This document shows positions 19,663 through 32,756 of a DNA stretch of 37,043 nucleotides, piece after piece. Each line of letters begins with the position of its first letter. Within the stretch, counting starts at the first letter, position 1. The notes under the pieces are model-generated. The model saw only the letters and a program-made list of their open reading frames with translations, was not told the origin of the DNA and did no database searches. Where the stretch lies: IMG/VR virus record IMGVR_UViG_3300037329_000040; one strand, 5' to 3'. Position numbers and translations under genes: made by a program. Origin of the DNA: an uncultured virus (IMG/VR IMGVR_UViG_3300037329_000040) (lineage: Duplodnaviria > Heunggongvirae > Uroviricota > Caudoviricetes).

Positions 19663-19771
19663 GTTATGAGATTGTTATTCAATATACCCAATCGTTACCA
19701 AAACGTTATCATATACGTCATTTCGTTACCAAATTGTTATAATATATATCATTTCGTTATCAAATTGTTAT
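19663..19771. repeat. Four GTTAY-N6-GTTAT boxes with an exact 31-bp period (MtrA-like)
   Basis: Starts at 19663, 19694, 19725 and 19756. Confidence 0.85.
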
Positions 19772-20029
19772 AATACAAATATTGACAGATCTGAATATGT
19801 ATGATATAAGGCAAAATCTGAAAAAATCTATATTTAGCAAAATCTGAATTTTGACTAGTAGGGAACCATACGCACTCACAGCAGAATATTCCCAATTGTT
19901 AGTCCGCACACTCCTGGCGTCATAAAAACAATTGACCCGTACGCCCTATAAAGTAATGCACCCCTGCCAGGTTGTAGAAAACCTACAAAGGAATGGCTAA
20001 AACTTTGTAGGATAAATCTTTTTGTTTAT

Positions 20030-20070
20030 CGGCGTGTCGACTTGACTTTTTGAGGTTTAGGGTATAGTCT
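20030..20070 (+). promoter_or_regulatory. First early promoter: CGGCGTGTCG box plus TTGACT-N17-TAGTCT
   Basis: The same box abuts -35 elements at 20582, 20703, 21358, 21613, 21826 and 22422. Confidence 0.8.
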
Positions 20071-20460: not shown

Positions 20461-20542
20461 CATAATGATAACGCTCACTTTTGATACTTGGGAGGACTAT
20501 GACAACGCTATTGCTGGAATTGCTAGTGTTGTAACCGAAATG

Positions 20543-20573
20543 AATACCCCAGAAAAATAGGGGTATTTTTTTT
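20543..20573 (+). terminator. Intrinsic terminator after the small ORF 20465..20560
   Basis: AATACCCC/GGGGTATT stem plus T-run. Confidence 0.7.
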
Positions 20574-20644
20574 CCATTCATCGGCGTGTCGACTTGACAA
20601 ATTTTCGATCGTGGGCGGGTCCTAGTGGTCTAATGCCCTTATGA

Positions 20645-20660: not shown

Positions 20661-20775
20661 CCTATAAACCCCTGGAGCGTTACCAAACTGTTACATAATA
20701 CACGGCGTGTCGGCTTGACTTTTCAGCTGTAAGGTGTAGACTCTAACTATACAAAGAAAGATAAAGGATAAAGAA

Positions 20776-21575: not shown

Positions 21576-21697
21576 CCGTTACCGTTTTGTTATAAAAAAC
21601 TTTCGCCAAACACGGCGTGTCGACTTGACTTTTGGGAGATATGGTATAGACTAATAGTATAAATAAAGATAAAGAAATAAAAGAAAGGAAGTAAAAA

Positions 21698-21979: not shown

Positions 21980-22024
21980 ATGGCTTGTAATTGTGAAGAT
22001 AGACCTTGTTGCGGCTGCAACTAA
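21980..22024 (+). CDS. 14-aa Cys-rich micropeptide MACNCEDRPCCGCN
   Basis: Own promoter (21930) and CGAAAGGATA RBS. Confidence 0.65.
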   Translation: MACNCEDRPCCGCN

Positions 22025-22074
22025 AATGTCAGACCCCTGTGCTAAGATAAACCTATAACCAGAAAAGGATAATA

Positions 22075-22206
22075 ATGAATTGTGGATTTTGTAAGTTTGC
22101 TAAGGCAACTGAGGCTGTATTGCTAATAGACGACACAGTGAACGCACTGTGCCCAAAGTGTGCCTTTAGCGTTGAAGAATTTACTGTGAATGTGGGGTGT
22201 TTGTGA
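22075..22206 (+). CDS. 43-aa CxxC/CxxC protein
   Basis: Promoter at 22027; AAAGGATAATA RBS. Confidence 0.65.
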   Translation: MNCGFCKFAKATEAVLLIDDTVNALCPKCAFSVEEFTVNVGCL

Positions 22207-23079: not shown

Positions 23080-23364
23080 GCAGATGACTACAGAAGAACT
23101 CGAACAACTTATTTTCAAAATAGACTTGATGTTGTCAGATAATCCTGATAGACTATTCGTAACGAAAGAAGGTAGCTGATGATTTTTTACAATGGTTTCA
23201 ACTTGCTAGTAGACATAATCCTAGTATCTGCGGCAGTCCTTATCACTCTTGGCTATGCTAAGCGTAAGTATTTCTCAACTAAGCGAGAAAGTTTTATTCC
23301 TCCTTTTTAGGGGGTAATAAAGGGGTGAGATCCTGAAACGATCTAACCAAGCCACCCAACAAAG

Positions 23365-23412
23365 ATAGCACCTAGAGAGTTATTATCCTTTCGCTCTGGG
23401 TGCTATTTTTTT
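23365..23412 (+). ncRNA. Anti-RBS stem-loop A1 (also terminator-like)
   Basis: 13-bp stem, 16-nt loop AGTTATTATCCTTTCG, followed by a T-run. Confidence 0.7.
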
Positions 23413-23518
23413 GCCCCCGGCCCCTTTTTATTCCTGGCAGAAAGTTTTTAAGAAGTCAATTAAGAACACCTCCAAAACTCCCTAGAAAAATGTCTTACCC
23501 CTGATGTATAGTGTAACT

Positions 23519-23803: not shown

Positions 23804-23968
23804 ATGAGCAAATTAGGAAGATACAACGAGGCAAGGCGCAAGGTTGAAAGCCAAGCGTTATTTTACAACATACTAAAAAACCCCCACCTAGTAGCGCAGG
23901 TCGATAAGTATAAGGGTTCAAGGCAGTCTAACAACTATAATGCTATCAAAGAAAGTAGGAGTGAATAA
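23804..23968 (+). CDS. 54-aa basic leaderless protein
   Basis: ATG 6 nt after the -10 of the 23776 promoter. Confidence 0.6.
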   Translation: MSKLGRYNEARRKVESQALFYNILKNPHLVAQVDKYKGSRQSNNYNAIKESRSE

Positions 23969-24139
23969 TGGCTAAAACACTATTTTGGGGAAAGACTAGT
24001 TGCGACACTTGCGATCGTGTTATGCATGATGCCCAAGTCTATTACTTTGATTCCCGACACTTATGCCTAGTTTGCTATGCCAGCGAACAAAATGTCTTAG
24101 CCCTAGTGTAAGCTTATCTTATAACCGAAAGGATACAAA

Positions 24140-24334
24140 ATGGCAAAATACGATGTAGTAGTTCAACTAACAGGTCGTGATGGAAACGCTTTTGCGGTAA
24201 TGGGAGCGGTAAAGTCTGCACTAAAAAAGTCTGGAGCAACCGCTTCAGAAATTAGCGAGTATCTTTCTGCCAGTATGTCGGGAGACTACGACAACCTTTT
24301 GAGGGTTGCTATGGAATACGTGGAGGTAAAATAA
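24140..24334 (+). CDS. Conserved phage protein (DGNAFA.MG...SGDY..LL family)
   Basis: Recognisable motif; CGAAAGGATA RBS. Confidence 0.75.
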   Translation: MAKYDVVVQLTGRDGNAFAVMGAVKSALKKSGATASEISEYLSASMSGDYDNLLRVAMEYVEVK

Positions 24335-24603
24335 TGGGAATGATGACAGCGATAGAATTGCAAGAGCAAGGCATGAGCCTAGAGAATCAGATAGCTATTC
24401 ACTTTAGTAGTAATTGCTATCCCCCAATTCCGCATCAAATGATACCTACGGCAATAACAGCTATTGACGCTTATTGGGAAGATGAATTAGATAAACTAAT
24501 ACCGTTGCCGCAAGGTGTAAGCTTTAGGGGCAATACCGAGGTGTCTGCCAGGAACGTAATCAATTCATACTACTTAGGCGCATGGTGTTCGGAAGATAGT
24601 TGA
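24334..24603 (+). CDS. Hypothetical protein
   Basis: TAATG-coupled; H...N.YPP.P motif. Confidence 0.7.
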   Translation: MGMMTAIELQEQGMSLENQIAIHFSSNCYPPIPHQMIPTAITAIDAYWEDELDKLIPLPQGVSFRGNTEVSARNVINSYYLGAWCSEDS

Positions 24604-24654
24604 CAAACAGCTGAGAACATGCTAAGCTATAATCTATAACCCCTACAGAGAGAC

Positions 24655-25188
24655 TTGCCCCAAATGCTAGAAACTTACATTGAGAAATACTCCAAGCTTG
24701 TATCCCAAGCAACCCTAGGCCAAGTTGAGCAAGCAGCAATTTGGTACATGGACGCTGAGCGCATTGCTGAAAAAGTAGCAATAAACTTAGGGACCACCTT
24801 AGAGATAGGGGCCAGTGTTGTAAGTTCATTCTCACCTCGAGAGCGGTGGACCATGAACATCGCTAGGGCCATAGCATTCTCACTAGGGCAAGAGGTCCGC
24901 TGCCTAAAGAATAACATCCGTATGGCCGAGAAATCACTCACTGACGGGTTTGGTGCCCTAAAAGGCCTAAAGACTAATGCATTCGCCAAGGCTATTGCAG
25001 GTGACCAAGAGCAAGTTGTGATAGACGTCTGGATGATGAAAGCCGTTGACCACGCCAAGTCCTCACCTAGCCAAAGTGACTATTATGCACTTAGCCAAGC
25101 AGTAAAGGCAGTTGCCAAAATCCATGGCCTAACACCTAGAACAACCCAAGCAATTATCTGGATAGTAAAGAGAGGTTCACATGAATAA
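24655..25188 (+). CDS. Conserved phage protein, DUF7178-like (possible DNA glycosylase-like fold)
   Basis: WY...SP...W..N...G.K..AF..AI.GD...V.ID.W...P...QA..W motif series; TTGACA promoter at 24600. Confidence 0.55.
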   Translation: MPQMLETYIEKYSKLVSQATLGQVEQAAIWYMDAERIAEKVAINLGTTLEIGASVVSSFSPRERWTMNIARAIAFSLGQEVRCLKNNIRMAEKSLTDGFGALKGLKTNAFAKAIAGDQEQVVIDVWMMKAVDHAKSSPSQSDYYALSQAVKAVAKIHGLTPRTTQAIIWIVKRGSHE

Positions 25189-25336
25189 GGTAACTCCAAT
25201 TAGGACAGAGAGTCAACACCCAGCATTGCTAAGTATGCGCAATAAGATAATTAGCCTCGAGGAAAGCATCGTTGATATGCAACGTCAACTAGACTTCATG
25301 AGAATAGAAATTACTAAGCTTCAGTAGGGGTACTGA

Positions 25337-25364
25337 CGTCCTGGCCATGACGAAAAACTGGCTA
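25337..25364 (+). ncRNA. H-type pseudoknot in a 3' UTR, copy 1
   Basis: CGTC/GACG plus TGGCCA/TGGCTA; covaries with 26460..26488. Confidence 0.6.
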
Positions 25365-25636
25365 TTTTTTTCTGTCTGTGCCCGCCCCCTTTTGCCACAG
25401 AAATCAATTAAGAAGATCTACGAAAACCCCCTACAAACTTTGTAGGTTTTCTACTTGACTTTCATCAACAGATAGGGCATACTAGTATTAGTTGAAAAGG
25501 GAAAAGCAAGACAGAAGTTGTTACCAAAAAGTTATCAAATAGACTTGACAAACACCCTTTCATCTGCGATAATAGACCTATCAACAAATCGTTGGTAATA
25601 ATCAAGACAGTCCCTCTGGGGCGGTAAGGAAGCAAA

Positions 25637-25783
25637 ATGAACGAAGTAACTGTTGGCTCACAGTTCACCACAGCAAAGTCTGGCGTTACAGGCATTGTTC
25701 AGGAAGTAGTAAAGAACACTAATGGCACTTACAGAGTTCGACTTGATGTTTCTGGTCAAGAGCGTTGGACTACTGTAAAGTAG
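25637..25783 (+). CDS. 48-aa beta-rich (SH3-like) protein
   Basis: AAGGAAG RBS; two SigA promoters upstream (25455, 25545). Confidence 0.65.
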   Translation: MNEVTVGSQFTTAKSGVTGIVQEVVKNTNGTYRVRLDVSGQERWTTVK

Positions 25784-25794
25784 TATCATTAGAC

Positions 25795-25836
25795 TTGGGG
25801 AAGATAGAGTTATTATCCTTTCGCTATCTTCCCCAA
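25795..25836 (+). ncRNA. Anti-RBS stem-loop A2
   Basis: Perfect 13-bp stem unrelated to A1; identical 16-nt loop. Confidence 0.7.
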
Positions 25837-25989
25837 TAAAATAACTAAACATAGGGGTGGTGTAGGACTACATAAGAGCAGTAAGATAGAGTCCTTATAC
25901 GACTATTGCCACCACCCCATAAAATGTCCTACCCCTATTGTATAATTACTAAGTAAGCAAATAACCCCTAATGAAAGTAGAACCCTATA

Positions 25990-26436
25990 ATGGCTAGAAG
26001 CATTTCCGTAAAAATCCCAACAGCTCTCCTAATCGCAGAAATTGAAGCAAAGATTGCAAGCATTGACGCATCAGTTGAAAGCTATGAAGATGACTTGGCA
26101 AAGTATGAGGTGGACAAAGAGCAGTATCGCAAAGACCTAGCTGTTGCAATTAGCAAAGTTATGTTGAATAGCGATACCATTGGCTATGAGTATGACGCTC
26201 CAATTCGTGTTGTTACCTATGGAGATAGTCGTATTCAGATTGAGTTCAAGCCAAGTGCAGTAGCTGGAATACCTGAGATGCCACAACAGCCACAAGAGCC
26301 TAACAGGAAAATGTGGTATGGTCGTGAATACTACTCTCCAAAAGAAATGCTCCAGAAAAACCTCAAGGTATTGCGTATGACCACCCAAGAGGAAGTATCT
26401 GGCTCAACCTATGGGGCGTTGATAGAGTTCCTATAA
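25990..26436 (+). CDS. Hypothetical coiled-coil protein
   Basis: 148-aa ORF; promoter at 25925. Confidence 0.75.
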   Translation: MARSISVKIPTALLIAEIEAKIASIDASVESYEDDLAKYEVDKEQYRKDLAVAISKVMLNSDTIGYEYDAPIRVVTYGDSRIQIEFKPSAVAGIPEMPQQPQEPNRKMWYGREYYSPKEMLQKNLKVLRMTTQEEVSGSTYGALIEFL

Positions 26437-26459
26437 ACCTGCAAAGGTTTAGGGAAAAT

Positions 26460-26488
26460 GACCTGAGTATGTCTAGGTAAACTGCTCA
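26460..26488 (+). ncRNA. H-type pseudoknot in a 3' UTR, copy 2
   Basis: GAC/GTC plus TGAGTA/TGCTCA. Confidence 0.6.
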
Positions 26489-26549
26489 CCCTAAAGTGTC
26501 TGACCCCAATGCTAGTCTGTATGTATAACCAAGGAAGCAGGTATCCCAA

Positions 26550-27053
26550 ATGGGAACACGCAACATAACTAAGGTAATCAAAGATGGCAACACAGTAGTT
26601 TCTCAGTATGGACAATGGGACGGATACCCTGAGGGACAGGGCGTTACCGCTCTAAACTTTATCCGTAACCCTGAGATGATTGAACTACTAACCCATAACA
26701 TTGACAACCTATACACGATGAGTGATACAGTATGGGCTTTAGAGATTGATAAGATTCAGAAAGCAAATCTTGACGATAAGGAGTTTGAAAAGCTCTGGCC
26801 TACTATGTCAAGAAACACTTGCGCAGACATTCTAGAAGTGATTGCTACTAGTGATGGAATGTTGCCTATTGTTCTAGACCTAGAATTTGAGTTTGATGAG
26901 CTAATGTGTGAAGGTATCTATACCCTCAATTTAGATAACAGAACCTTTGTTTCTACCTATGAAGGAATTACTCTCGTTCTCACCTTTGATGAGATACAGG
27001 CAGGACTAACCAACGATGACTATGTTTGGGCGTTCACTTTAGAAAAAGCATAA
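26550..27053 (+). CDS. Conserved phage protein (MGTR...Y..WDGYP family)
   Basis: Motif recognition; promoter at 26497. Confidence 0.7.
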   Translation: MGTRNITKVIKDGNTVVSQYGQWDGYPEGQGVTALNFIRNPEMIELLTHNIDNLYTMSDTVWALEIDKIQKANLDDKEFEKLWPTMSRNTCADILEVIATSDGMLPIVLDLEFEFDELMCEGIYTLNLDNRTFVSTYEGITLVLTFDEIQAGLTNDDYVWAFTLEKA

Positions 27054-27216
27054 GCAACACGCCGATCCCCTGGACTTGACATCTGGGGGATCTGGCCCCC
27101 GGGCCCCTCGTTACCAAAACGCAATTAAGAAGAAGAAGAAAAACCCCTCCAGGGCTTGCATAATGTCACCCCCTTGGTGTATAGTAGTACTATCAAACAA
27201 AGAGAGAAGACCCCTT

Positions 27217-28212
27217 ATGTCGCACGAAATTGAAACAGTAAATGGCCAGTCCGCATTCGCATCACTACGTCAGCCTGCATGGCATGGATTGGGAACCGTA
27301 TTTGATGAGGAAGTTACAACCAAGGAAATGCTAGACCTAGCACACCTTTCAGATTGGAACGTCCGTCTAGAAGATGTTGCAATTCCCGAAGGCTTTGCAA
27401 GTGACAAGAGCTTTTCTTTTGTTACACGCACTAACCCTTTTGACAAAGAGCAGAACGATGTTCTAGGCGTGGTTGGTGAGCGTTATGTTCCATTGCAGAA
27501 CGAAGACTTGTTTGACTTTGGAGACCTAATGTTGGATGGTGGAGGACGTTGGGAGACAGCTGGCTCTATCAAGGGTGGCCGTCAAGTATTCGGTTCTCTG
27601 GCTCTTGAGCGTGAGAGTATCTTAGACCCTAGTGGCGTAGCCGATAAAGTCAACACGTATTTGCTAATCAACACAAGCCACGATGGTTCAGTTGCCATCC
27701 AAGCTTCTATTACTCCAGTTCGTGTTGTATGCGCTAACACTCTCAACTTTGCTCTTAGGGGTAAAGCTAAGCAGTCCTTCAAGATTAGGCACACAGCAAC
27801 CGCTTCTGGCAAGGTTCAACAAGCTCGTGAGGCACTTGGATTAGCTAACAAGTACATGGATGAGTTTGACCTTATGGCACAGCAGATGATTGAGTCAGAA
27901 ATCTCTAAAGCCAAGTTTGACAAGATTGTTGCTTTGGCATACCCTGCACCAGTAGGCGAAGATAAGAAGGGTTCGTTCAAGAAGTATGGAACGAAGATTG
28001 ACGTAATCAACTCTATTTACTACAGCGATACAACCGCCATGATTAGTGGAACGGCTTGGGGCGCTCTAAACGCCATGACAGAACGTTTGGATTGGTATCG
28101 CACAGCTCGTGGTGGTTCCAATGAGTCTATCTTGGCTTCCGCTTCTGGCTTTGACCCAATGATAAATGCAGAGAAAAACCGTTTGCTTCAGTTGGTATTA
28201 GCCAACGCATAG
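27217..28212 (+). CDS. DUF932 / phage-plasmid TIGR03299-like protein
   Basis: PAWHGLG, LGVVG.RY...QN, ETAGS..GG, SHDGS, TPVRVVCANTL, RHT, GTAWG..NA..E motifs; start corrected to MSHEIE. Confidence 0.9.
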   Translation: MSHEIETVNGQSAFASLRQPAWHGLGTVFDEEVTTKEMLDLAHLSDWNVRLEDVAIPEGFASDKSFSFVTRTNPFDKEQNDVLGVVGERYVPLQNEDLFDFGDLMLDGGGRWETAGSIKGGRQVFGSLALERESILDPSGVADKVNTYLLINTSHDGSVAIQASITPVRVVCANTLNFALRGKAKQSFKIRHTATASGKVQQAREALGLANKYMDEFDLMAQQMIESEISKAKFDKIVALAYPAPVGEDKKGSFKKYGTKIDVINSIYYSDTTAMISGTAWGALNAMTERLDWYRTARGGSNESILASASGFDPMINAEKNRLLQLVLANA

Positions 28213-28228
28213 CAAAACGAAAAGCAGG

Positions 28229-28257
28229 TGGCCTTCCCAAAACTGGGAGGGCCATTT
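28229..28257 (+). terminator. Hairpin terminator after DUF932
   Basis: TGGCCTTCCCA-AAAC-TGGGAGGGCCA. Confidence 0.65.
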
Positions 28258-28310
28258 GACTTTCACGAAGATCTGTGCCCGGCCCCACTTTTGATAATAA
28301 ATAATATATA

Positions 28311-28353
28311 TAGTTATCAAAAAGACTTTAAGAAGAAGGGTAAAAACCCCTCG
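28311..28353 (+). repeat. 43-bp perfect repeat of 30212..30254 (partial third copy near 30276)
   Basis: TAGTTATCAAAAAGACTTTAAGAAGAAGGGTAAAAACCCCTCG. Confidence 0.9.
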
Positions 28354-28421
28354 AGAGGTACTTGCATAATGTCTGACCCCCATGGTAGTATTGATTTATC
28401 AAAGAAAGAGAGAGACCCCCA

Positions 28422-28619
28422 ATGACCTATGTACTCAGACCAGAATCATACGTTTCAGAAGATGGCAACTACGGTAGTGGCATGCTGCTTACCTTTTCTT
28501 ATGACCAGCTAACCGAAGACCAGTGGGGTGTTCTTGACACCCTAGCCGACAGCGATAAAATGTCGTATGCCGTTGCTATACTAAAGGGACACGAAGACCT
28601 ATCAGAATGGGAAGACTAA
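28422..28619 (+). CDS. Acidic hypothetical protein
   Basis: Promoter at 28370; GAAAGAGAGAGA RBS. Confidence 0.7.
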   Translation: MTYVLRPESYVSEDGNYGSGMLLTFSYDQLTEDQWGVLDTLADSDKMSYAVAILKGHEDLSEWED

Positions 28620-29223
28620 TGGCTGAAGTAACTATGGGCAGCACCTGGACTAATTTCTTTAGTATGCCAGTTATAACTAATAACGATACCCTGGAGGATG
28701 AAGATGAATCTTGAATACTGGCAAGGTGTGTATGATACCTGTGAGTATCTTAGAGATGAATTGGGCCTTGAGGGGATGATGGATACTCATATGGCTGTTC
28801 AGGCTATTGAGGAGCTAGGGCTATGAGTGAGTACCGTATATATTCTGATGGCACACTTTATCTAAATAAGATAAAGGCTGATAGGCTATACGACGTATAT
28901 CGGTGTGTCGGTTGCGGTAAGTCTTGGAGGTCTACCGCTAATAAAATGGGACACAAAGAGGCTACCTGCAGGAGGTATCGTTGACAGTATCAAAGGCTAA
29001 GGCCAGACGTGATGGAACCTATGTTCATGTTCCTAAAATGTCATACCCTACCCCTACAATAGGAACTATGAAAACAACAAAGCCATGTCCCAACCACGAA
29101 GGTGCCTTTGATTGCACACCATTCTGTAACAAGTGTGAAGGAGAGCAAGAGTATAATGTCTGAGGGTAATGATAGACTAGAGGAACTAACAGACGAAGAA
29201 CTACTACACTTAGGGAGAAGCTA

Positions 29224-29409
29224 ATGTCAGAAACAGGATACTTTTTTAGTAAGAAACAGGCTGCTATGATTGCAGAACTAATTGCTCAGAAGGTAGAGGA
29301 AGACCATTCCAAATACCATTGTCTAGTAGAAGCGTATGACAAGCTAACTAGAGGTTGGACTTGGAAATCAGATGACCACGAAGCAAGAAAGCTAGAGGAC
29401 GCAAAATGA
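29224..29409 (+). CDS. Hypothetical protein
   Basis: GGGAG RBS; ORF track. Confidence 0.65.
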   Translation: MSETGYFFSKKQAAMIAELIAQKVEEDHSKYHCLVEAYDKLTRGWTWKSDDHEARKLEDAK

Positions 29410-29513
29410 GTGCTTGGACAGACGGTAGCATAATCAACGAAGATGTGTTGAATAGCCTAACCAAAGAGCAACTAGATAAACTAGCAGAGATGTTGAAAGA
29501 CGTATAACCCAAG

Positions 29514-29786
29514 ATGAAAATTCGCAAAAGACAAAGTAGGGAGACTACCTTGACGTTTATGACTAAAGAGTTTACCAAGCTTGACCAGTTCCTAGACTAC
29601 ATGGTTAGTCATCTCTATACTCTCTATGATGAGGTAGACCAGATAACTTGGGAGGACATTGAGTTTGAATACCTGAGTGGTAGCATTGACACTACCCAAC
29701 ACTACCTTGCCAAGTGTGGTAAGGACTACATGGCGCTCAACCAATACCAGGAAATCTTGGAGGAACAAAAATGGAAAAATTCATAG
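29514..29786 (+). CDS. Acidic hypothetical protein (start uncertain)
   Basis: ORF track. Confidence 0.6.
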   Translation: MKIRKRQSRETTLTFMTKEFTKLDQFLDYMVSHLYTLYDEVDQITWEDIEFEYLSGSIDTTQHYLAKCGKDYMALNQYQEILEEQKWKNS

Positions 29787-29986
29787 AGACTGATAGGAAC
29801 AACGTTGAGTTCCATCGCCGACTCTGGTCAGAGATAGCCAAAGAGAATGGTTGGTACAACGAACCGTTCTACGTCCAAACATTCCAAAACGAGGCAGGTG
29901 AGATTTGGGACAGTGTTAGCAGTCGCGACATGACCCAGGACCGCGTATACCTCGGAGAGGAATTTGACGGCGAGGATGACGACTGA
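29771..29986 (+). CDS. Acidic hypothetical protein
   Basis: GGAGG RBS. Confidence 0.7.
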   Translation: MEKFIETDRNNVEFHRRLWSEIAKENGWYNEPFYVQTFQNEAGEIWDSVSSRDMTQDRVYLGEEFDGEDDD

Positions 29987-30358
29987 GGAGAAGGTCCCCA
30001 CGGGTAGGTAAAGAAGACTTTGAATAAACAACAGACAGGGAGACACACAATGGAAGATGAATACGTCGTAGAGCTATTTGAGATGGCTGAGAAGGGTGAG
30101 ATTTCTTACCAAGAGCTGAACATGGAATTGGAGACAGGTGGCTTTGACGGCGACCTGATCGATTTCCTCTAGCAGGACCCTTCGGGGCCCGGGTCTCTAT
30201 AACAGTATTAGTAGTTATCAAAAAGACTTTAAGAAGAAGGGTAAAAACCCCTCGGGTCCTTCTATCAAGACTATTAGTTATTAAAAAGACTTTAAGAAGA
30301 AGGTTGACAACCCCCTAGGATCATGAGACAATAGAGTATCAAAGAAAGTAGGATTTCA

Positions 30359-30529
30359 ATGGCGGAATACACCGTAAGTATTTATGAAAAGATTGCTCAC
30401 ATTGTAGACGTAGAAGCTGAATCAGAAGATGAAGCATACGACAAAGCCTACGAGGCTATCTCTTTGGGTAAGCCCTATGACATCGAAGCTGTGGAATTTA
30501 CTGGTGAGTGGAGAGCAGAGCTTAGCTAA
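30359..30529 (+). CDS. 56-aa acidic protein (VEAESEDEA motif, DpnD/PcfM-like)
   Basis: AGAAAGTAGGA RBS; TTGACA promoter at 30304. Confidence 0.65.
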   Translation: MAEYTVSIYEKIAHIVDVEAESEDEAYDKAYEAISLGKPYDIEAVEFTGEWRAELS

Positions 30530-30580
30530 AATGTCAGACCCCACTGTTATAATAAAAGTATAAACGAAAGTAGGATTTTA

Positions 30581-30811
30581 ATGGATCAGAAGGTATACGC
30601 AGATCGTAAGCCACGGGTATCTGAGGTAGGATCATGGAACAGGATCTTTCATAACGAGGACATCTCAGTCTATGAGGCTAGTAATTTTTATGATTACTAC
30701 AAGACTGTTACTCGTGCTAAGAAGACTAAGTACTTCTTTGGAGAGACTGCCTGGATGAGTACCCAGAGATTTGTCTTATCGCTCAGCCTCTCCGCTTACT
30801 CTATTTTCTAA
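30581..30811 (+). CDS. Hypothetical protein (FFGETAW motif)
   Basis: Promoter at 30532; GAAAGTAGGA RBS. Confidence 0.7.
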   Translation: MDQKVYADRKPRVSEVGSWNRIFHNEDISVYEASNFYDYYKTVTRAKKTKYFFGETAWMSTQRFVLSLSLSAYSIF

Positions 30812-30876
30812 AAAGACTTGACAATGGCCGCTGCCTATGTCATACTTGACACATAACCCCAAGAGATAGGAACCCC

Positions 30877-31410
30877 TTGCACGTACTTCAAAACATAGCT
30901 ATTCAAGCAGACGACTCCGAGCATGCCTTTCGTTCTGTACAAGAGGGACTAGAAGCAAAGCTAGGGGATGACCCCTACTCCGATAGTAATACATGGTTTG
31001 ATTGGTTTGTTACTGGTGGTGGACGGTTCTCTAGTAGTGAGGACCCTTACAACGATAACTACATGGATGATGTTGTAAAGCAAGATACCCCAGAGTTTGT
31101 GGACAGGCTTACTCAGTCTATGACTAATCGCAGTACAGAGATGTCTGAGTATCTAGTTAGTGCAGAAAAGATTGACTACAAGGCTCTGCTTGTCTCTTTG
31201 AGGGGAGCAAGCTCTGGTAACCCTGACTACAAGGTAATGTCTGACCTCTACTCTATCAAGAAGCTCTATGACATGGCTGGTGGACTTTGGGACTTCAACT
31301 CATACTTCTATGACATGCATAACGACAGCACAAGTATGCAACCCATGCAAAAAAGTATTGACAATGGCGACAAGACGTGGTACATTGTACCTGTAGACTT
31401 CCACTTCTAA
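30877..31410 (+). CDS. Conserved phage protein (MH...WFDW...GGR...VDFH family)
   Basis: Motif pattern; TTGACA promoter at 30818. Confidence 0.7.
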   Translation: MHVLQNIAIQADDSEHAFRSVQEGLEAKLGDDPYSDSNTWFDWFVTGGGRFSSSEDPYNDNYMDDVVKQDTPEFVDRLTQSMTNRSTEMSEYLVSAEKIDYKALLVSLRGASSGNPDYKVMSDLYSIKKLYDMAGGLWDFNSYFYDMHNDSTSMQPMQKSIDNGDKTWYIVPVDFHF

Positions 31411-31419
31411 GGAGACCCC

Positions 31420-31812
31420 ATGACTACATACGAAAGTTTGACCTACACTCAGTGGGAAGAAAAGTTCAAGCCAGTCACTAATCATCTTACCAAGCAACCT
31501 GACTCTATAATCTTTGAGACGTATGGTGAAGACTGGGAGCACCTTGCTGGTATAGATAATCATTTCATCTGGACGTTTGGAGACTCAGGTGGCTGTAGCT
31601 ACATTAGCAATGGACAGCATTGGGTAAACAGGTTGCACTATCACATCACAGAGATACCTTGGGAAGAAGACGTGTCCTATGACATCACTGTCAGCACCGA
31701 TGAAGACTGCGAGTGCTACGATGAGTCGCGTATGGAAGCAAACGAAGAACCAGGAAATCCAGATTGCATAGAGTGTGAAGGCTCAGGACTGATTACGGTG
31801 TACAATGATTAA
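31420..31812 (+). CDS. Hypothetical protein (FETYG...VNR..Y.ITE.PW, C-terminal CxxCxG)
   Basis: AAGGAG RBS. Confidence 0.7.
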   Translation: MTTYESLTYTQWEEKFKPVTNHLTKQPDSIIFETYGEDWEHLAGIDNHFIWTFGDSGGCSYISNGQHWVNRLHYHITEIPWEEDVSYDITVSTDEDCECYDESRMEANEEPGNPDCIECEGSGLITVYND

Positions 31813-31993
31813 TACTATAGCTACAAACCTTACTTTGCAAAACGTCAGCATGGAGTTGATTAGAAAGCAGAGAAGGTTACTCAACCTGTTAACAATGGGA
31901 GAGAAAATTACAGAAGACCAGATGGACCTAGTCTATGCATTCTTAGATTGCTTAGATGATGCCATATGGAATAAGGCAGGGGAAGAGAACTAA
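31805..31993 (+). CDS. Hypothetical protein
   Basis: Overlap-coupled ORF. Confidence 0.55.
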   Translation: MINTIATNLTLQNVSMELIRKQRRLLNLLTMGEKITEDQMDLVYAFLDCLDDAIWNKAGEEN

Positions 31994-32376
31994 TGCAAAC
32001 CAATGAGCACGACGTTAACGTATACGTAGATAATGATATCGTAAAGATAGTATGCTACAGGATGATGGTTGATAGCGAAGGAGAGTTGGTGGCCACAGAT
32101 ACCCAGAGTGAACCTAAGATCTTTGCCATCTCCATTAATGAAACGGACCCTGAGCTTAAAGAGATCCTGAGGTTTGCATTAGATGCTGAGTACTATGATT
32201 CTGTAGAAGAGAAAGAAGACTGGGTAGCATTGCATGGTTCATGGCAGTCATACTGGGCAGGCACAGATACTTGGGAATCTAGTACCACCTTCTCAAAGAA
32301 TGCCACTCCGATCCTGGCGTCTTTCTTGGACTCACTTCCTTTCTACGAGCCTAAGACTTTGGCATACAACAACTAA
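31993..32376 (+). CDS. Acidic hypothetical protein
   Basis: TAATG-coupled. Confidence 0.65.
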   Translation: MQTNEHDVNVYVDNDIVKIVCYRMMVDSEGELVATDTQSEPKIFAISINETDPELKEILRFALDAEYYDSVEEKEDWVALHGSWQSYWAGTDTWESSTTFSKNATPILASFLDSLPFYEPKTLAYNN

Positions 32377-32456
32377 TTAAATAAAGATTGACAGAGTCGA
32401 GCCTAGCTCCTTTGTCATAGCGGACAACGTGGTTAGGGGTAACTAGTTGTCCGCAC

Positions 32457-32497
32457 TGGAGGTGTTGAGGGTTCCTACTTTCTCCTTGACACCTCCA
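32457..32497 (+). ncRNA. Anti-RBS stem-loop B (third of three tandem hairpins)
   Basis: 14-bp stem, loop GTTCCTACTTTCT; the 3' arm contains the TTGACA of a TTGACA-N17-TACAAT promoter. Confidence 0.65.
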
Positions 32498-32531
32498 ACC
32501 ATTTTTGGTACAATAGGACAATAGGAGAATA

Positions 32532-32756
32532 ATGAAACGAAGCCTGACAAAAGACCAAGTGGTCGCAAAGAGAATTGCTGAAATGGTCAGTGATGTTACA
32601 TTGGACTTAGACGAGGTAGGGAAATCTATTGCAAACGCTCACCCAACAGTTATCTATAACAGGTTAGTTTTACTTGCAGAGGCTGCCGTAGAGGAAAAGA
32701 CTACAGAAAAAGGACATTCCAGTTTGAACAATTACCTAGAGGAAAGAGGTTTCTGA
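32532..32756 (+). CDS. Hypothetical protein
   Basis: AGGAG RBS; promoter at 32486-32514. Confidence 0.7.
   Translation: MKRSLTKDQVVAKRIAEMVSDVTLDLDEVGKSIANAHPTVIYNRLVLLAEAAVEEKTTEKGHSSLNNYLEERGF

Follow-up and report, generated by a model that had tools for sequence, protein, structure and literature searches.

Can a phage hairpin whose loop is complementary to the ribosome-binding sites (RBSs) of several genes of the same phage regulate those genes, or is the loop conserved for some other reason? The question is raised by a stem-loop, hereafter called hairpin B or H2, which lies at 32457-32497 on the plus strand of the uncultured caudoviricete record IMGVR_UViG_3300037329_000040 of the IMG/VR database; the whole stretch of 37,043 nucleotides (nt) that was analysed is referred to as the window. 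The original prediction, made from the letters of the window, described hairpin B as one of several hairpins directed against different RBS variants. We find that hairpin B and the complementarity of its loop are real and go beyond chance, and that the hairpin is the last part of a conserved structured RNA overlapping a promoter. Repression of translation through the loop is the reading of these findings that we tentatively favour. The shut-off of the dozens of tiny early genes of large lytic phages is poorly understood beyond a few models such as T4 and T7, and the element suggests a possible answer at the RNA level.

Hairpin B and the three-hairpin element

The arms and loop of hairpin B read TGGAGGTGTTGAGG / GTTCCTACTTTCT / CCTTGACACCTCCA. 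In the plus sense, its stem is made up of 14 pairs, 12 Watson-Crick and two G.U; an optional fifteenth pair, also G.U, leaves 11 nt of a loop that measures 11-13 nt overall. This 11-nt loop, UUCCUACUUUC, occupies 32472-32482, and its core CUACUUUC is the complement of GAAAGUAG. An inverted-repeat scan recovered the hairpin as I10, and the segment 32440-32515 folds as RNA at -27.3 kcal/mol (z = -3.75), with an equally good fold in one of 200 shuffled sequences. The 14-base-pair (bp) stem-loop that had been predicted is thus present in the sequence, in the repeat scan and in the RNA fold alike.

Hairpin B is the third and last hairpin of a conserved element of about 110 nt (32389-32497, plus strand), which sits in the 155-nt gap between the genes at 31993-32376 and 32532-32756; the 131-nt stretch 32382-32512 folds at -61.3 kcal/mol. 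The first hairpin of the element, H0 (32389-32417), has a variable outer stem and a conserved inner part, GAGC-CUA-GCUC. The second, H1 (32420-32454), has a variable lower stem and an invariant top, GUUA-GGGG-UAAC, with a GGGG tetraloop.

The 3' arm of H2 includes the -35 box of a plus-strand promoter at 32486-32514, composed of TTGACA (32486-32491), a 17-nt spacer, TG (32506-32507) and TACAAT (32509-32514). This promoter agrees with the consensus at 11 of 12 positions, in addition to the TG. It is followed by the Shine-Dalgarno sequence AGGAG (32523-32527) and by the conserved gene that it drives, for a protein of 74 amino acids (aa; 32532-32756, ATG at 32532, plus strand), and the relatives described below show the same arrangement of promoter, AGGAG and ATG. 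Because the start point of the promoter is past the hairpin, only RNA coming from upstream can carry hairpin B. The element would then form the 3' untranslated tail of the last gene of the upstream operon (31993-32376, plus strand).

It should be noted that hairpin B does not have the form of a canonical intrinsic terminator. Its stem would fit, but its loop is 11-13 nt long and ACCA precedes the T run, which starts 5 nt past the H2 stem and in the relatives is part of the promoter spacer. A terminator scan covering loops of 3-8 nt did not list hairpin B; canonical terminators are present elsewhere in the window, for example at 20542-20568 and 25430-25446.

Another TTGACA, inside H0 (32390), was considered as the promoter of a small RNA and rejected. 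No -10 box follows it at a usable distance, CATAGC being 22 nt away in the window; in several relatives the hexamer is replaced by TTCCTA or TTGGCG; and a small RNA starting there would cut into the co-varying H1 stem.

Two short open reading frames (ORFs) on the minus strand, 32351-32521 and 32443-32568 (56 and 41 aa), overlap the element and are probably spurious. Strings similar to UAGGGG(G)UA, as in the top of H1, are also seen near other hairpins, at 23300-23325 and also at 25850, 20559 and 33672, one of these strings being located about 36 nt 5' of hairpin A1 (see below). With at most one mismatch, TTAGGGGKTA gave 11 matches against 5.3 expected, a number reached in 3 of 100 shuffles.

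Conservation and strand sense

Neither a near nor a distant search of the collection of cultured phages gave a nucleotide match, and the nearest record, G001, is without this region. In L001, a close relative, only 2 of about 150 intergenic positions have changed, although the upstream gene has diverged strongly. In the more distant G002 (locus L139) the region is 72% identical, and all three hairpins are rebuilt from different letters. A gapped pattern derived from L001 and G002 retrieved 19 IMG/VR loci, about 14 of them distinct, and a relaxed pattern without the loop added only one further IMG/VR record. Scans of IMG/VR with the exact loops, as words of 16 and 14 nt, returned mostly chance matches; the true relatives among them were L009, L010 and L020 for the A loop of the sister hairpins and L001 for the B loop. 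When 15 related IMG/VR records were searched whole, each was found to contain exactly one copy of the element.

Analysis of 15 aligned sequences with RNAalifold gave 28 pairs, nine of which show compensatory changes. For this structure 97.3% of cells are paired, a share that falls to 41-51% if the partners are displaced by 1-3 columns, and the covariation score is 0.334, compared with 0.182 +/- 0.014 in shuffles, none of 500 of which reached it. Two-sided changes affect five of the six pairs of the outer H0 stem, and the lower stems of H1 are entirely different from one relative to another. At the top of H1, GTTAGGGGTA is invariant in all 15 sequences, but TTAGGGGTA belonged to the search pattern. 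The stem of hairpin B (helix 4) is 100% paired; among its 13 aligned pairs three changed on both sides and four on one side, and three of these four one-sided changes created G.U pairs with the TTGACA of the 3' arm, which does not vary. In five of the 15 sequences, the three pairs facing TTGACA are U.G or G.U. Read in the opposite sense, or in a DNA cruciform, these wobbles would turn into A.C mismatches, and the structure under selection is therefore the plus-sense RNA.

Across the same alignment TTGACAC, TnTG and A-AAT do not vary, and the promoter boxes are invariant or nearly so in all 15 relatives. The loop core CUACUUUC is also nearly invariant, while the stems that carry it turn over. 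A scan of metagenomes pointed in the same direction: 41 of the 120 loci listed, which were not de-duplicated, have the H2 hairpin, the others being chance matches, and CTACTTTC falls within the loop in 36 of these 41.

In Rfam, no family reached the gathering threshold in the window. With E values up to 10, the region 32300-32600 gave one match only, at chance level, to the long non-coding RNA family HOTAIR_3 (E = 2.3), and a scan of the window for transfer RNA and transfer-messenger RNA genes found none. The element is a conserved structured RNA that is absent from Rfam and uncatalogued.

Complementarity of the loop with ribosome-binding sites

According to the original prediction, the reverse complement of the B loop occurs just upstream of start codons at 23950, 30343, 30566, 25973 and about 30867. 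All five matches were found on the plus strand, each of them 3-10 nt 5' of a start codon; the first four are what we call class-B RBSs. The two longest, of 11 nt, are copies of AGAAAGTAGGA, at 23950-23960 (gene 23968-24111; -16.5 kcal/mol with the B loop) and at 30343-30353 (gene 30359-30529; -16.1 kcal/mol). They are followed by a 10-nt match, (C)GAAAGTAGGA, at 30566-30575 (gene 30581-30811; -15.2 kcal/mol), by the 8-nt match GAAAGTAG at 25973-25980 (gene 25990-26436) and by the 7-nt match TAGGAAC at 30867-30873, in front of the TTG start of the gene 30877-31410. Relatives of gene 25990-26436 in other genomes have GAAAGTAG too, and orthologues of gene 30877-31410 carry GAAAGTAG-type sites. 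On the map, hairpin B does lie downstream of the genes bearing its RBS class, as had been proposed; the description of this class as a later one holds for map position only.

The RBS at 30343-30353 is located about 4 nt from the predicted 5' end of a transcript starting at the promoter at 30304. With the motif so close to the 5' end, pairing could stabilize the transcript as well as repress it. As a separate observation, the orthologue of gene 30359 in L139 (6257) has AGAAAGTGGGA instead of AGAAAGTAGGA, which replaces an A-U pair with the B loop by a G.U pair.

The significance of the matches was assessed at different stringencies. A loose test, using a 13-mer with up to 3 mismatches, was not significant (15 matches against 13.0 expected, reached in 33 of 100 shuffles). 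When GAAAGTAGGA was searched with at most one mismatch, eight matches were obtained against 2.9 expected, and none of 100 shuffles reached this number. The exact copies of GAAAGTAGGA are four, three on the plus strand, all at RBSs, and one on the minus strand, which is the loop itself. In addition, composition-preserving shuffles of the loop, that is, random pyrimidine-rich loops, were compared with the real loop over the upstream regions of 46 early-region ORFs. The count of three genes matched over 10 nt or more was equalled by 11 of 5000 shuffled loops, the longest match of 11 nt by 39 of 5000, and the sum of the top four matches by 6 of 5000. In this comparison, which the original prediction had put forward as a check, the complementarity is better than that of random pyrimidine-rich loops.

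The motif was then followed in the relatives. In 116.7 kilobases (kb) from 11 non-redundant loci, GAAAGTAG has 42 plus-strand copies against 1.78 expected for a random 8-mer, and for 39 of the 42 an ORF of 35 codons or more begins 1-12 nt further on. The gap between GAAAGTAG and the start is 3-7 nt in 36 of the 42 copies, whereas no regular spacing to the nearest -10-like box is seen, this distance being scattered or undefined; the motif is thus tied to translation starts rather than to promoters. Across different genomes it is the same orthologues that bear GAAAGTAG. Each of the 11 loci has a single CTACTTTC, invariably within the H2 loop. Among the minus-strand structural genes the sites are ordinary AGGAG or GGAGG, or absent.

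Two other explanations of the motif were rejected. A DNA operator does not agree with a distance that is fixed to start codons rather than to -10 boxes, and derivation of loop and RBS from one inverted duplication does not agree with a likeness that stops at the loop edges.

Sister hairpins and class specificity

Hairpin B has two sister hairpins in the window, both on the plus strand. Hairpin A1 (23361-23410) has a 17-bp stem and the loop AGTTATTATCCTTTCG, and is followed by a T7 run; hairpin A2 (25795-25836) has a perfect stem of 13 bp which is different from that of A1, and a 16-nt loop which is identical. The reverse complement of the A loop matches, over at least 7 nt, the GAAAGGATAA-type RBS of ten small genes located between 20.1 and 28.7 kb, nine of which lie at 20.1-24.2 kb. 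The values observed for the A loop were reached by 0-7 of 5000 shuffles.

More members of the A family are found in the relatives, with loops such as CGTTTCTTATCCTTTCT, TGTTATATCCTTTCTT and CTTACTTCCTTTCT, each on a new stem of 10-17 bp. At corresponding positions the stems are unrelated and the loop core is kept, as can be seen by comparing A1 with the hairpin at 4322-4363 of L140. The B loop of G002, AGTTATCCTACTTTCG, resembles a hybrid of the A and B loops, so the two families are related. Both RBS motifs are conserved across the phage group.

The two loops discriminate between the two classes in silico. The calculated duplex energy of the B loop is -15 to -16.5 kcal/mol on class-B sites and -6 to -7 kcal/mol on class-A sites (background -5.4 +/- 2.6 kcal/mol); that of the A loop is -13 to -14 kcal/mol on class-A sites and -5 to -9.6 kcal/mol on class-B sites (background -4.4 +/- 2.5 kcal/mol). 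These energies leave out the topological limits on pairing inside a closed loop, a point that counts against regulation by loop pairing. When 24 loops of the family were permuted among their positions, the sum of the best matches to RBSs up to 3 kb upstream was 186 +/- 7, against 216 for the real arrangement, which was reached in 0 of 2000 permutations; since orthologous positions do not count as independent, the permutation says no more than that loops and the RBSs near them agree in type.

These results allow a judgement on the wider scheme of the original prediction, in which genes are bar-coded by RBS variants and each bar code has its cognate hairpin. Two loop classes do mirror two RBS classes; between genomes, loop and RBS do not track each other (see below). 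The programmable, multi-channel silencing cascade drawn from that scheme goes beyond the evidence. The prediction also passed over the promoter box in the 3' arm, the two companion hairpins and the membership of the RBS classes in repeated promoter-leader cassettes.

Possible function of the element

The reading that we favour, quite possible if still somewhat short of probable, is that the element is a structured early-operon tail, fused to the next promoter, whose loop pairs with GAAAGUAG leaders and limits initiation there. In the plus sense, the element RNA would close an early operon as an untranslated tail. With its 3' arm H2 also supplies the next -35 box, so that operon end and promoter are combined in one cassette, with a layout like that of the PeSL cassettes considered below. 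The loop core CUACUUUC would act as the antisense image of GAAAGUAG(GA), the RBS motif of a set of early and middle genes, and would pair with their leaders either within one long message or, if the tail survives as a stable 3' fragment, on other messages. Such pairing would limit the access of ribosomes, and the A hairpins (loop UAUCCUUUC) would act likewise on the GAAAGGAUAA class. What the analysis shows directly is the structure, its plus sense, its conservation, its overlap with the promoter, and the complementarity together with its specificity in silico; we infer the accumulation of this RNA, its pairing and the resulting repression. The loop may act in cis or in trans, and pairing may repress or stabilize its targets.

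A more ambitious version of this reading, which we regard as rather doubtful, would make the system an RNA-only timer of early genes. Early messages would be sorted by GAAAGGAUAA and GAAAGUAG into at least two translation channels, each with its own hairpin family, whose tailored anti-RBS loops would fit the leaders better than the ribosome tail does. Stable operon tails would then accumulate and shut the channels in turn.

Several observations weigh against a strict correspondence between loops and RBSs. The matrix obtained by comparing loops and RBS sets across genomes has no diagonal: B loops taken from other genomes fit the RBS set of a given genome at least as well as its own B loop does. 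In L168 and L169, three genes carry GAAAGCAG and a single one GAAAGTAG, but the loop remains CCUACUUUC, and the UACUAC loop of L165 and L170 finds no GAAAGTAGT site. Of ten B loops tested, three (L166, L168 and L169) find no match as long as 8 nt in the 3 kb upstream. In the window itself, the first gene of the nearest upstream operon (31420) has AAGGAG, which pairs weakly (-7.6 kcal/mol). Moreover, the RBS classes are sub-families of repeated promoter-leader cassettes (AAAATGTCTGACCCC...TAnnAT, at least 15 copies), and the three best targets contain TATCAAAGAAAGTAGGA or a close relative of it; these targets are copies of one leader cassette, and the matches are therefore not independent events. 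Finally, the loops resemble, and the RBS classes complement, what we take to be the 3' tail of the 16S ribosomal RNA (rRNA) of many Gram-positive bacteria, and a shared relation to the ribosome tail would produce part of the fit between loops and RBSs without any direct interaction. The letters by which the A and B loops part from this presumed tail motif are mirrored exactly in the respective RBS classes.

Among the alternatives, a terminator or insulator without any anti-RBS role comes next; we consider it unlikely, though well worth weighing. In that case hairpin B would stop or attenuate read-through, so that the conserved downstream gene is expressed from its own promoter alone. The loop would be kept for another reason, for example as UP-like or activator DNA upstream of the -35 box, and its fit with the RBSs would be a by-product of the relation to the ribosome tail. 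The position of hairpin B over the -35 box of a conserved promoter suits this explanation, as does that of the A hairpins, which also lie directly 5' of promoter cassettes and one of which, A1, has a T7 tail. The missing co-variation between loop and RBS variants, and an intergenic cassette that is kept while the upstream gene is replaced or diverges, are equally in line with it, and the stem-loops of PeSL cassettes have been shown to terminate transcription (PMC2839356). On the other hand, the 11-13 nt loop and a T run that begins 5 nt past the stem, inside the promoter spacer, are poorly suited to termination, for which canonical structures exist elsewhere in the window. A terminator has no need of a fixed loop, and the core is nearly invariant on changing stems; nor does it need H0 and H1, two more conserved hairpins. 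The distance from the A loop to the promoter ranges from 4 to about 90 nt, unlike that of a promoter-upstream site, and a by-product of the presumed ribosome-tail motif would not explain why the deviations of the A and B loops from that motif recur in the RBS classes.

Recognition of the loops and of the top of H1 by a phage or host RNA-binding protein, serving processing, antitermination or stability, seems improbable to us. Hairpins recognized by proteins classically combine, as here, a conserved loop with a variable stem, the GTTAGGGGTA at the top of H1 is invariant (with the reservation about the search pattern made above), and the loop does not follow the changes of the RBSs. No candidate protein was identified, the neighbouring genes match no known family, and binding of a protein would leave unexplained both the two loop classes that mirror two RBS classes and the enrichment of the 8-mer at translation starts.

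A local effect on the downstream gene is less probable still. In read-through RNA, the 5' half of the loop (UUUCCU) would pair with the AGGAGA of the 74-aa gene and block its translation, whereas transcripts from the gene's own promoter would lack the hairpin and be translated. This is the logic of the T4 genes e and soc. The promoter is indeed placed between loop and RBS, and the energies of cognate loop-leader pairs sum to -95.8 kcal/mol, against -82.2 +/- 4.2 kcal/mol when permuted, with 2 of 1000 permutations reaching the real value. This signal is driven mainly by L154 and L161, in which both the loop (UACUAC) and the leader (GUAGUAUG) changed, and is essentially one lineage event. In 13 of the 15 sequences the pairing is weak (5-7 bp, -3 to -7 kcal/mol). 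Moreover, masking of this kind leaves unexplained the invariant 3' half of the loop, CUACUUUC, and the A hairpins precede genes with the other RBS class.

The weakest explanation, a decoy of the 16S rRNA 3' end in which a hairpin with a G-rich loop and, behind it, an anti-Shine-Dalgarno-like stretch would titrate a factor for the ribosome tail or for Shine-Dalgarno sequences, is highly implausible: the A and B loops are one or two letters away from what we assume to be a 10-nt Gram-positive 16S tail motif, the 3' arm of hairpin B contains CACCTCC and the UAGGGG top of H1 resembles what is presumably the last 16S hairpin, but the comparison rests on an assumed sequence which may not be the host's, CACCTCC becomes CACCCCC in most relatives within a stretch fixed by promoter context, and loops and RBS classes part from the tail motif at exactly the same places, an indication that the partners are the phage's own leaders.

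Comparison with known systems

The closest architectural parallel is offered by PeSL and PmSL, composite promoter-terminator cassettes of T4-type phages (Arbiol et al., 2010, PMC2839356; Comeau et al., 2014, PMC4122927). As in the PeSL described there, a strong sigma-70-like promoter (here TTGACA-N17-TACAAT with TG) is fused to a G/C-rich stem-loop, and the Shine-Dalgarno sequence and start codon of the next small gene stand at the 3' end of the cassette. Further likenesses with these accounts are the many tiny ORFans in the surroundings, the repetition of regulatory cassettes, and a cassette that is conserved while the flanking gene is swapped or diverges. The differences concern the loop and the copy number. 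The loop of hairpin B is conserved and mirrors RBSs, whereas the portions of the PeSL papers on which we draw describe conserved stem motifs, GGGG...CCCC, and there mention no complementarity between loop and RBS; and the B element is composed of three hairpins and occurs once per record (15 of 15), against the dozens of copies reported there for PeSL. It should be added that no T4 core gene was seen in the window, which showed only PHROG families of tail-fibre-like or unknown function.

A pairing of the type proposed here is found in the icaR messenger RNA (mRNA) of Staphylococcus aureus, in which a UCCCCUG motif of the 3' untranslated region pairs with the Shine-Dalgarno region of the same mRNA (PMC3868564). 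There too, a pyrimidine-rich motif in the tail is complementary to an upstream RBS region in the same orientation, and the proposed outcome, in the part of the work considered here, is a block of initiation and possibly a substrate for RNase III. In icaR, the pairing described involves one bacterial gene and one target; in the present case several genes are concerned, at distances of up to 8.5 kb (23950 to 32472), with two loop classes. The parallel is limited in that the presence of loop and targets on one RNA is putative here, and it is without sequence homology.

The c4 RNA of phages P1 and P7 binds the RBS region of ant, and the complementary sequences are likely to be in loops (PMC12197685). 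The likeness lies in a phage RNA, encoded in the orientation of its target, whose loops probably display short stretches complementary to the surroundings of one of the phage's own RBSs; in the account considered, c4 blocks translation. A c4 model is included in Rfam. The Rfam scans gave no family for the B element, hence no homology with c4 was found. In addition, c4 maps upstream of its target, is processed into a separate RNA and functions in lysogenic immunity, whereas the B element is downstream of its putative targets, in an apparent lytic early region.

In Gram-positive bacteria, C/U-rich loops of the hairpins of RNAIII and of RsaE/RoxS, including that of the terminator hairpin, pair with the Shine-Dalgarno sequences of several mRNAs. 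These are small RNAs of the host, which use UCCC motifs against canonical GGGA or GGAG sites. The loops described here match instead the non-canonical, phage-specific GAAAGUAG and GAAAGGAUAA, and their hairpins are at operon ends. In the literature searched, no description was found of phage operon-end hairpins with anti-RBS loops.

If the reading as anti-RBS loops is true, it would provide natural, mutually orthogonal pairs of leaders and hairpins for synthetic biology, and would add a regulatory role for the stem-loops of promoter/terminator cassettes, so far viewed as terminators and recombination sites. Should it fail, a well-defined new structured RNA is still obtained, together with a map of promoters, leaders and hairpins of an uncultured phage group.

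Genome context and other repeats

The window represents about a third of a genome estimated, from completeness values, at roughly 110 kb. The minus strand encodes tail-fibre-like genes from 1 to 18.3 kb, and the plus strand carries about 46 small ORFs from 19.6 to 33.3 kb, almost all without a known family. PHROG and Pfam scans gave no match for the genes flanking the element. The 74-aa protein (32532-32756), which has no PHROG or Pfam match, has eight relatives, none with an informative name (two are called 'hypothetical protein') or with a Pfam domain, and a protein scan found no relatives of the 127-aa product of the upstream gene (31993-32376).

One early-region product can be assigned to a family. 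The protein encoded at 27076-28212 contains DUF932 (Pfam, E = 7.7e-50) and is 53-56% identical to hypothetical proteins of Streptomyces phages; it has matches in 608 phage records, mostly of actinobacterial phages, which may be taken as a weak hint of an actinobacterial host group. A tail protein weakly resembles proteins of Pelagibacter phages, and neither this protein nor the DUF932 protein settles the host.

The early region is also rich in repeats. Some 15 promoter-like cassettes between 20913 and 31255 (families D1-D6) have the form AAAATGTC(T/A)GACCCC-N4-6-TAnnAT followed by a short leader, an RBS and ATG, for example at 22021-22079, 23485-23510, 25919-25944 and 30526-30579. Being unlike the TTGACA promoters, the AAAATGTC cassettes may be a phage-specific, perhaps middle, promoter class. 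At the start of the plus-strand early region, three tandem copies of CGTTACCAAAnnGTTATAATATA, 31 nt apart, are found at 19693-19777, with more copies at 20678, 21577 and 25519 (D10, D15); these could be clustered promoters or operators. GGCGTGTCGACTTGAC is repeated at 20025-20046, 20577-20598, 20698-20719 and 21608-21629 (D16), the copy at 20577 coming directly after the terminator 20542-20568, and may mark a third type of promoter context.

A 43-nt repeat, GTTATCAAAAAGACTTTAAGAAGAAGG(G/T)T(A/G)A(A/C)AACCCC, is present in seven copies between 21873 and 33440 (D4, D8), including those at 28313-28355, 30214-30256 and 30277-30319. One of the copies bears the TTGACA promoter at 30304, and two are in tandem, 63 nt apart. 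Lastly, an 11-bp hairpin at 27064-27092, GATCCCCTGGA / CTTGACA / TCTGGGGGATC, displays TTGACA in its loop just 5' of the DUF932 gene region.

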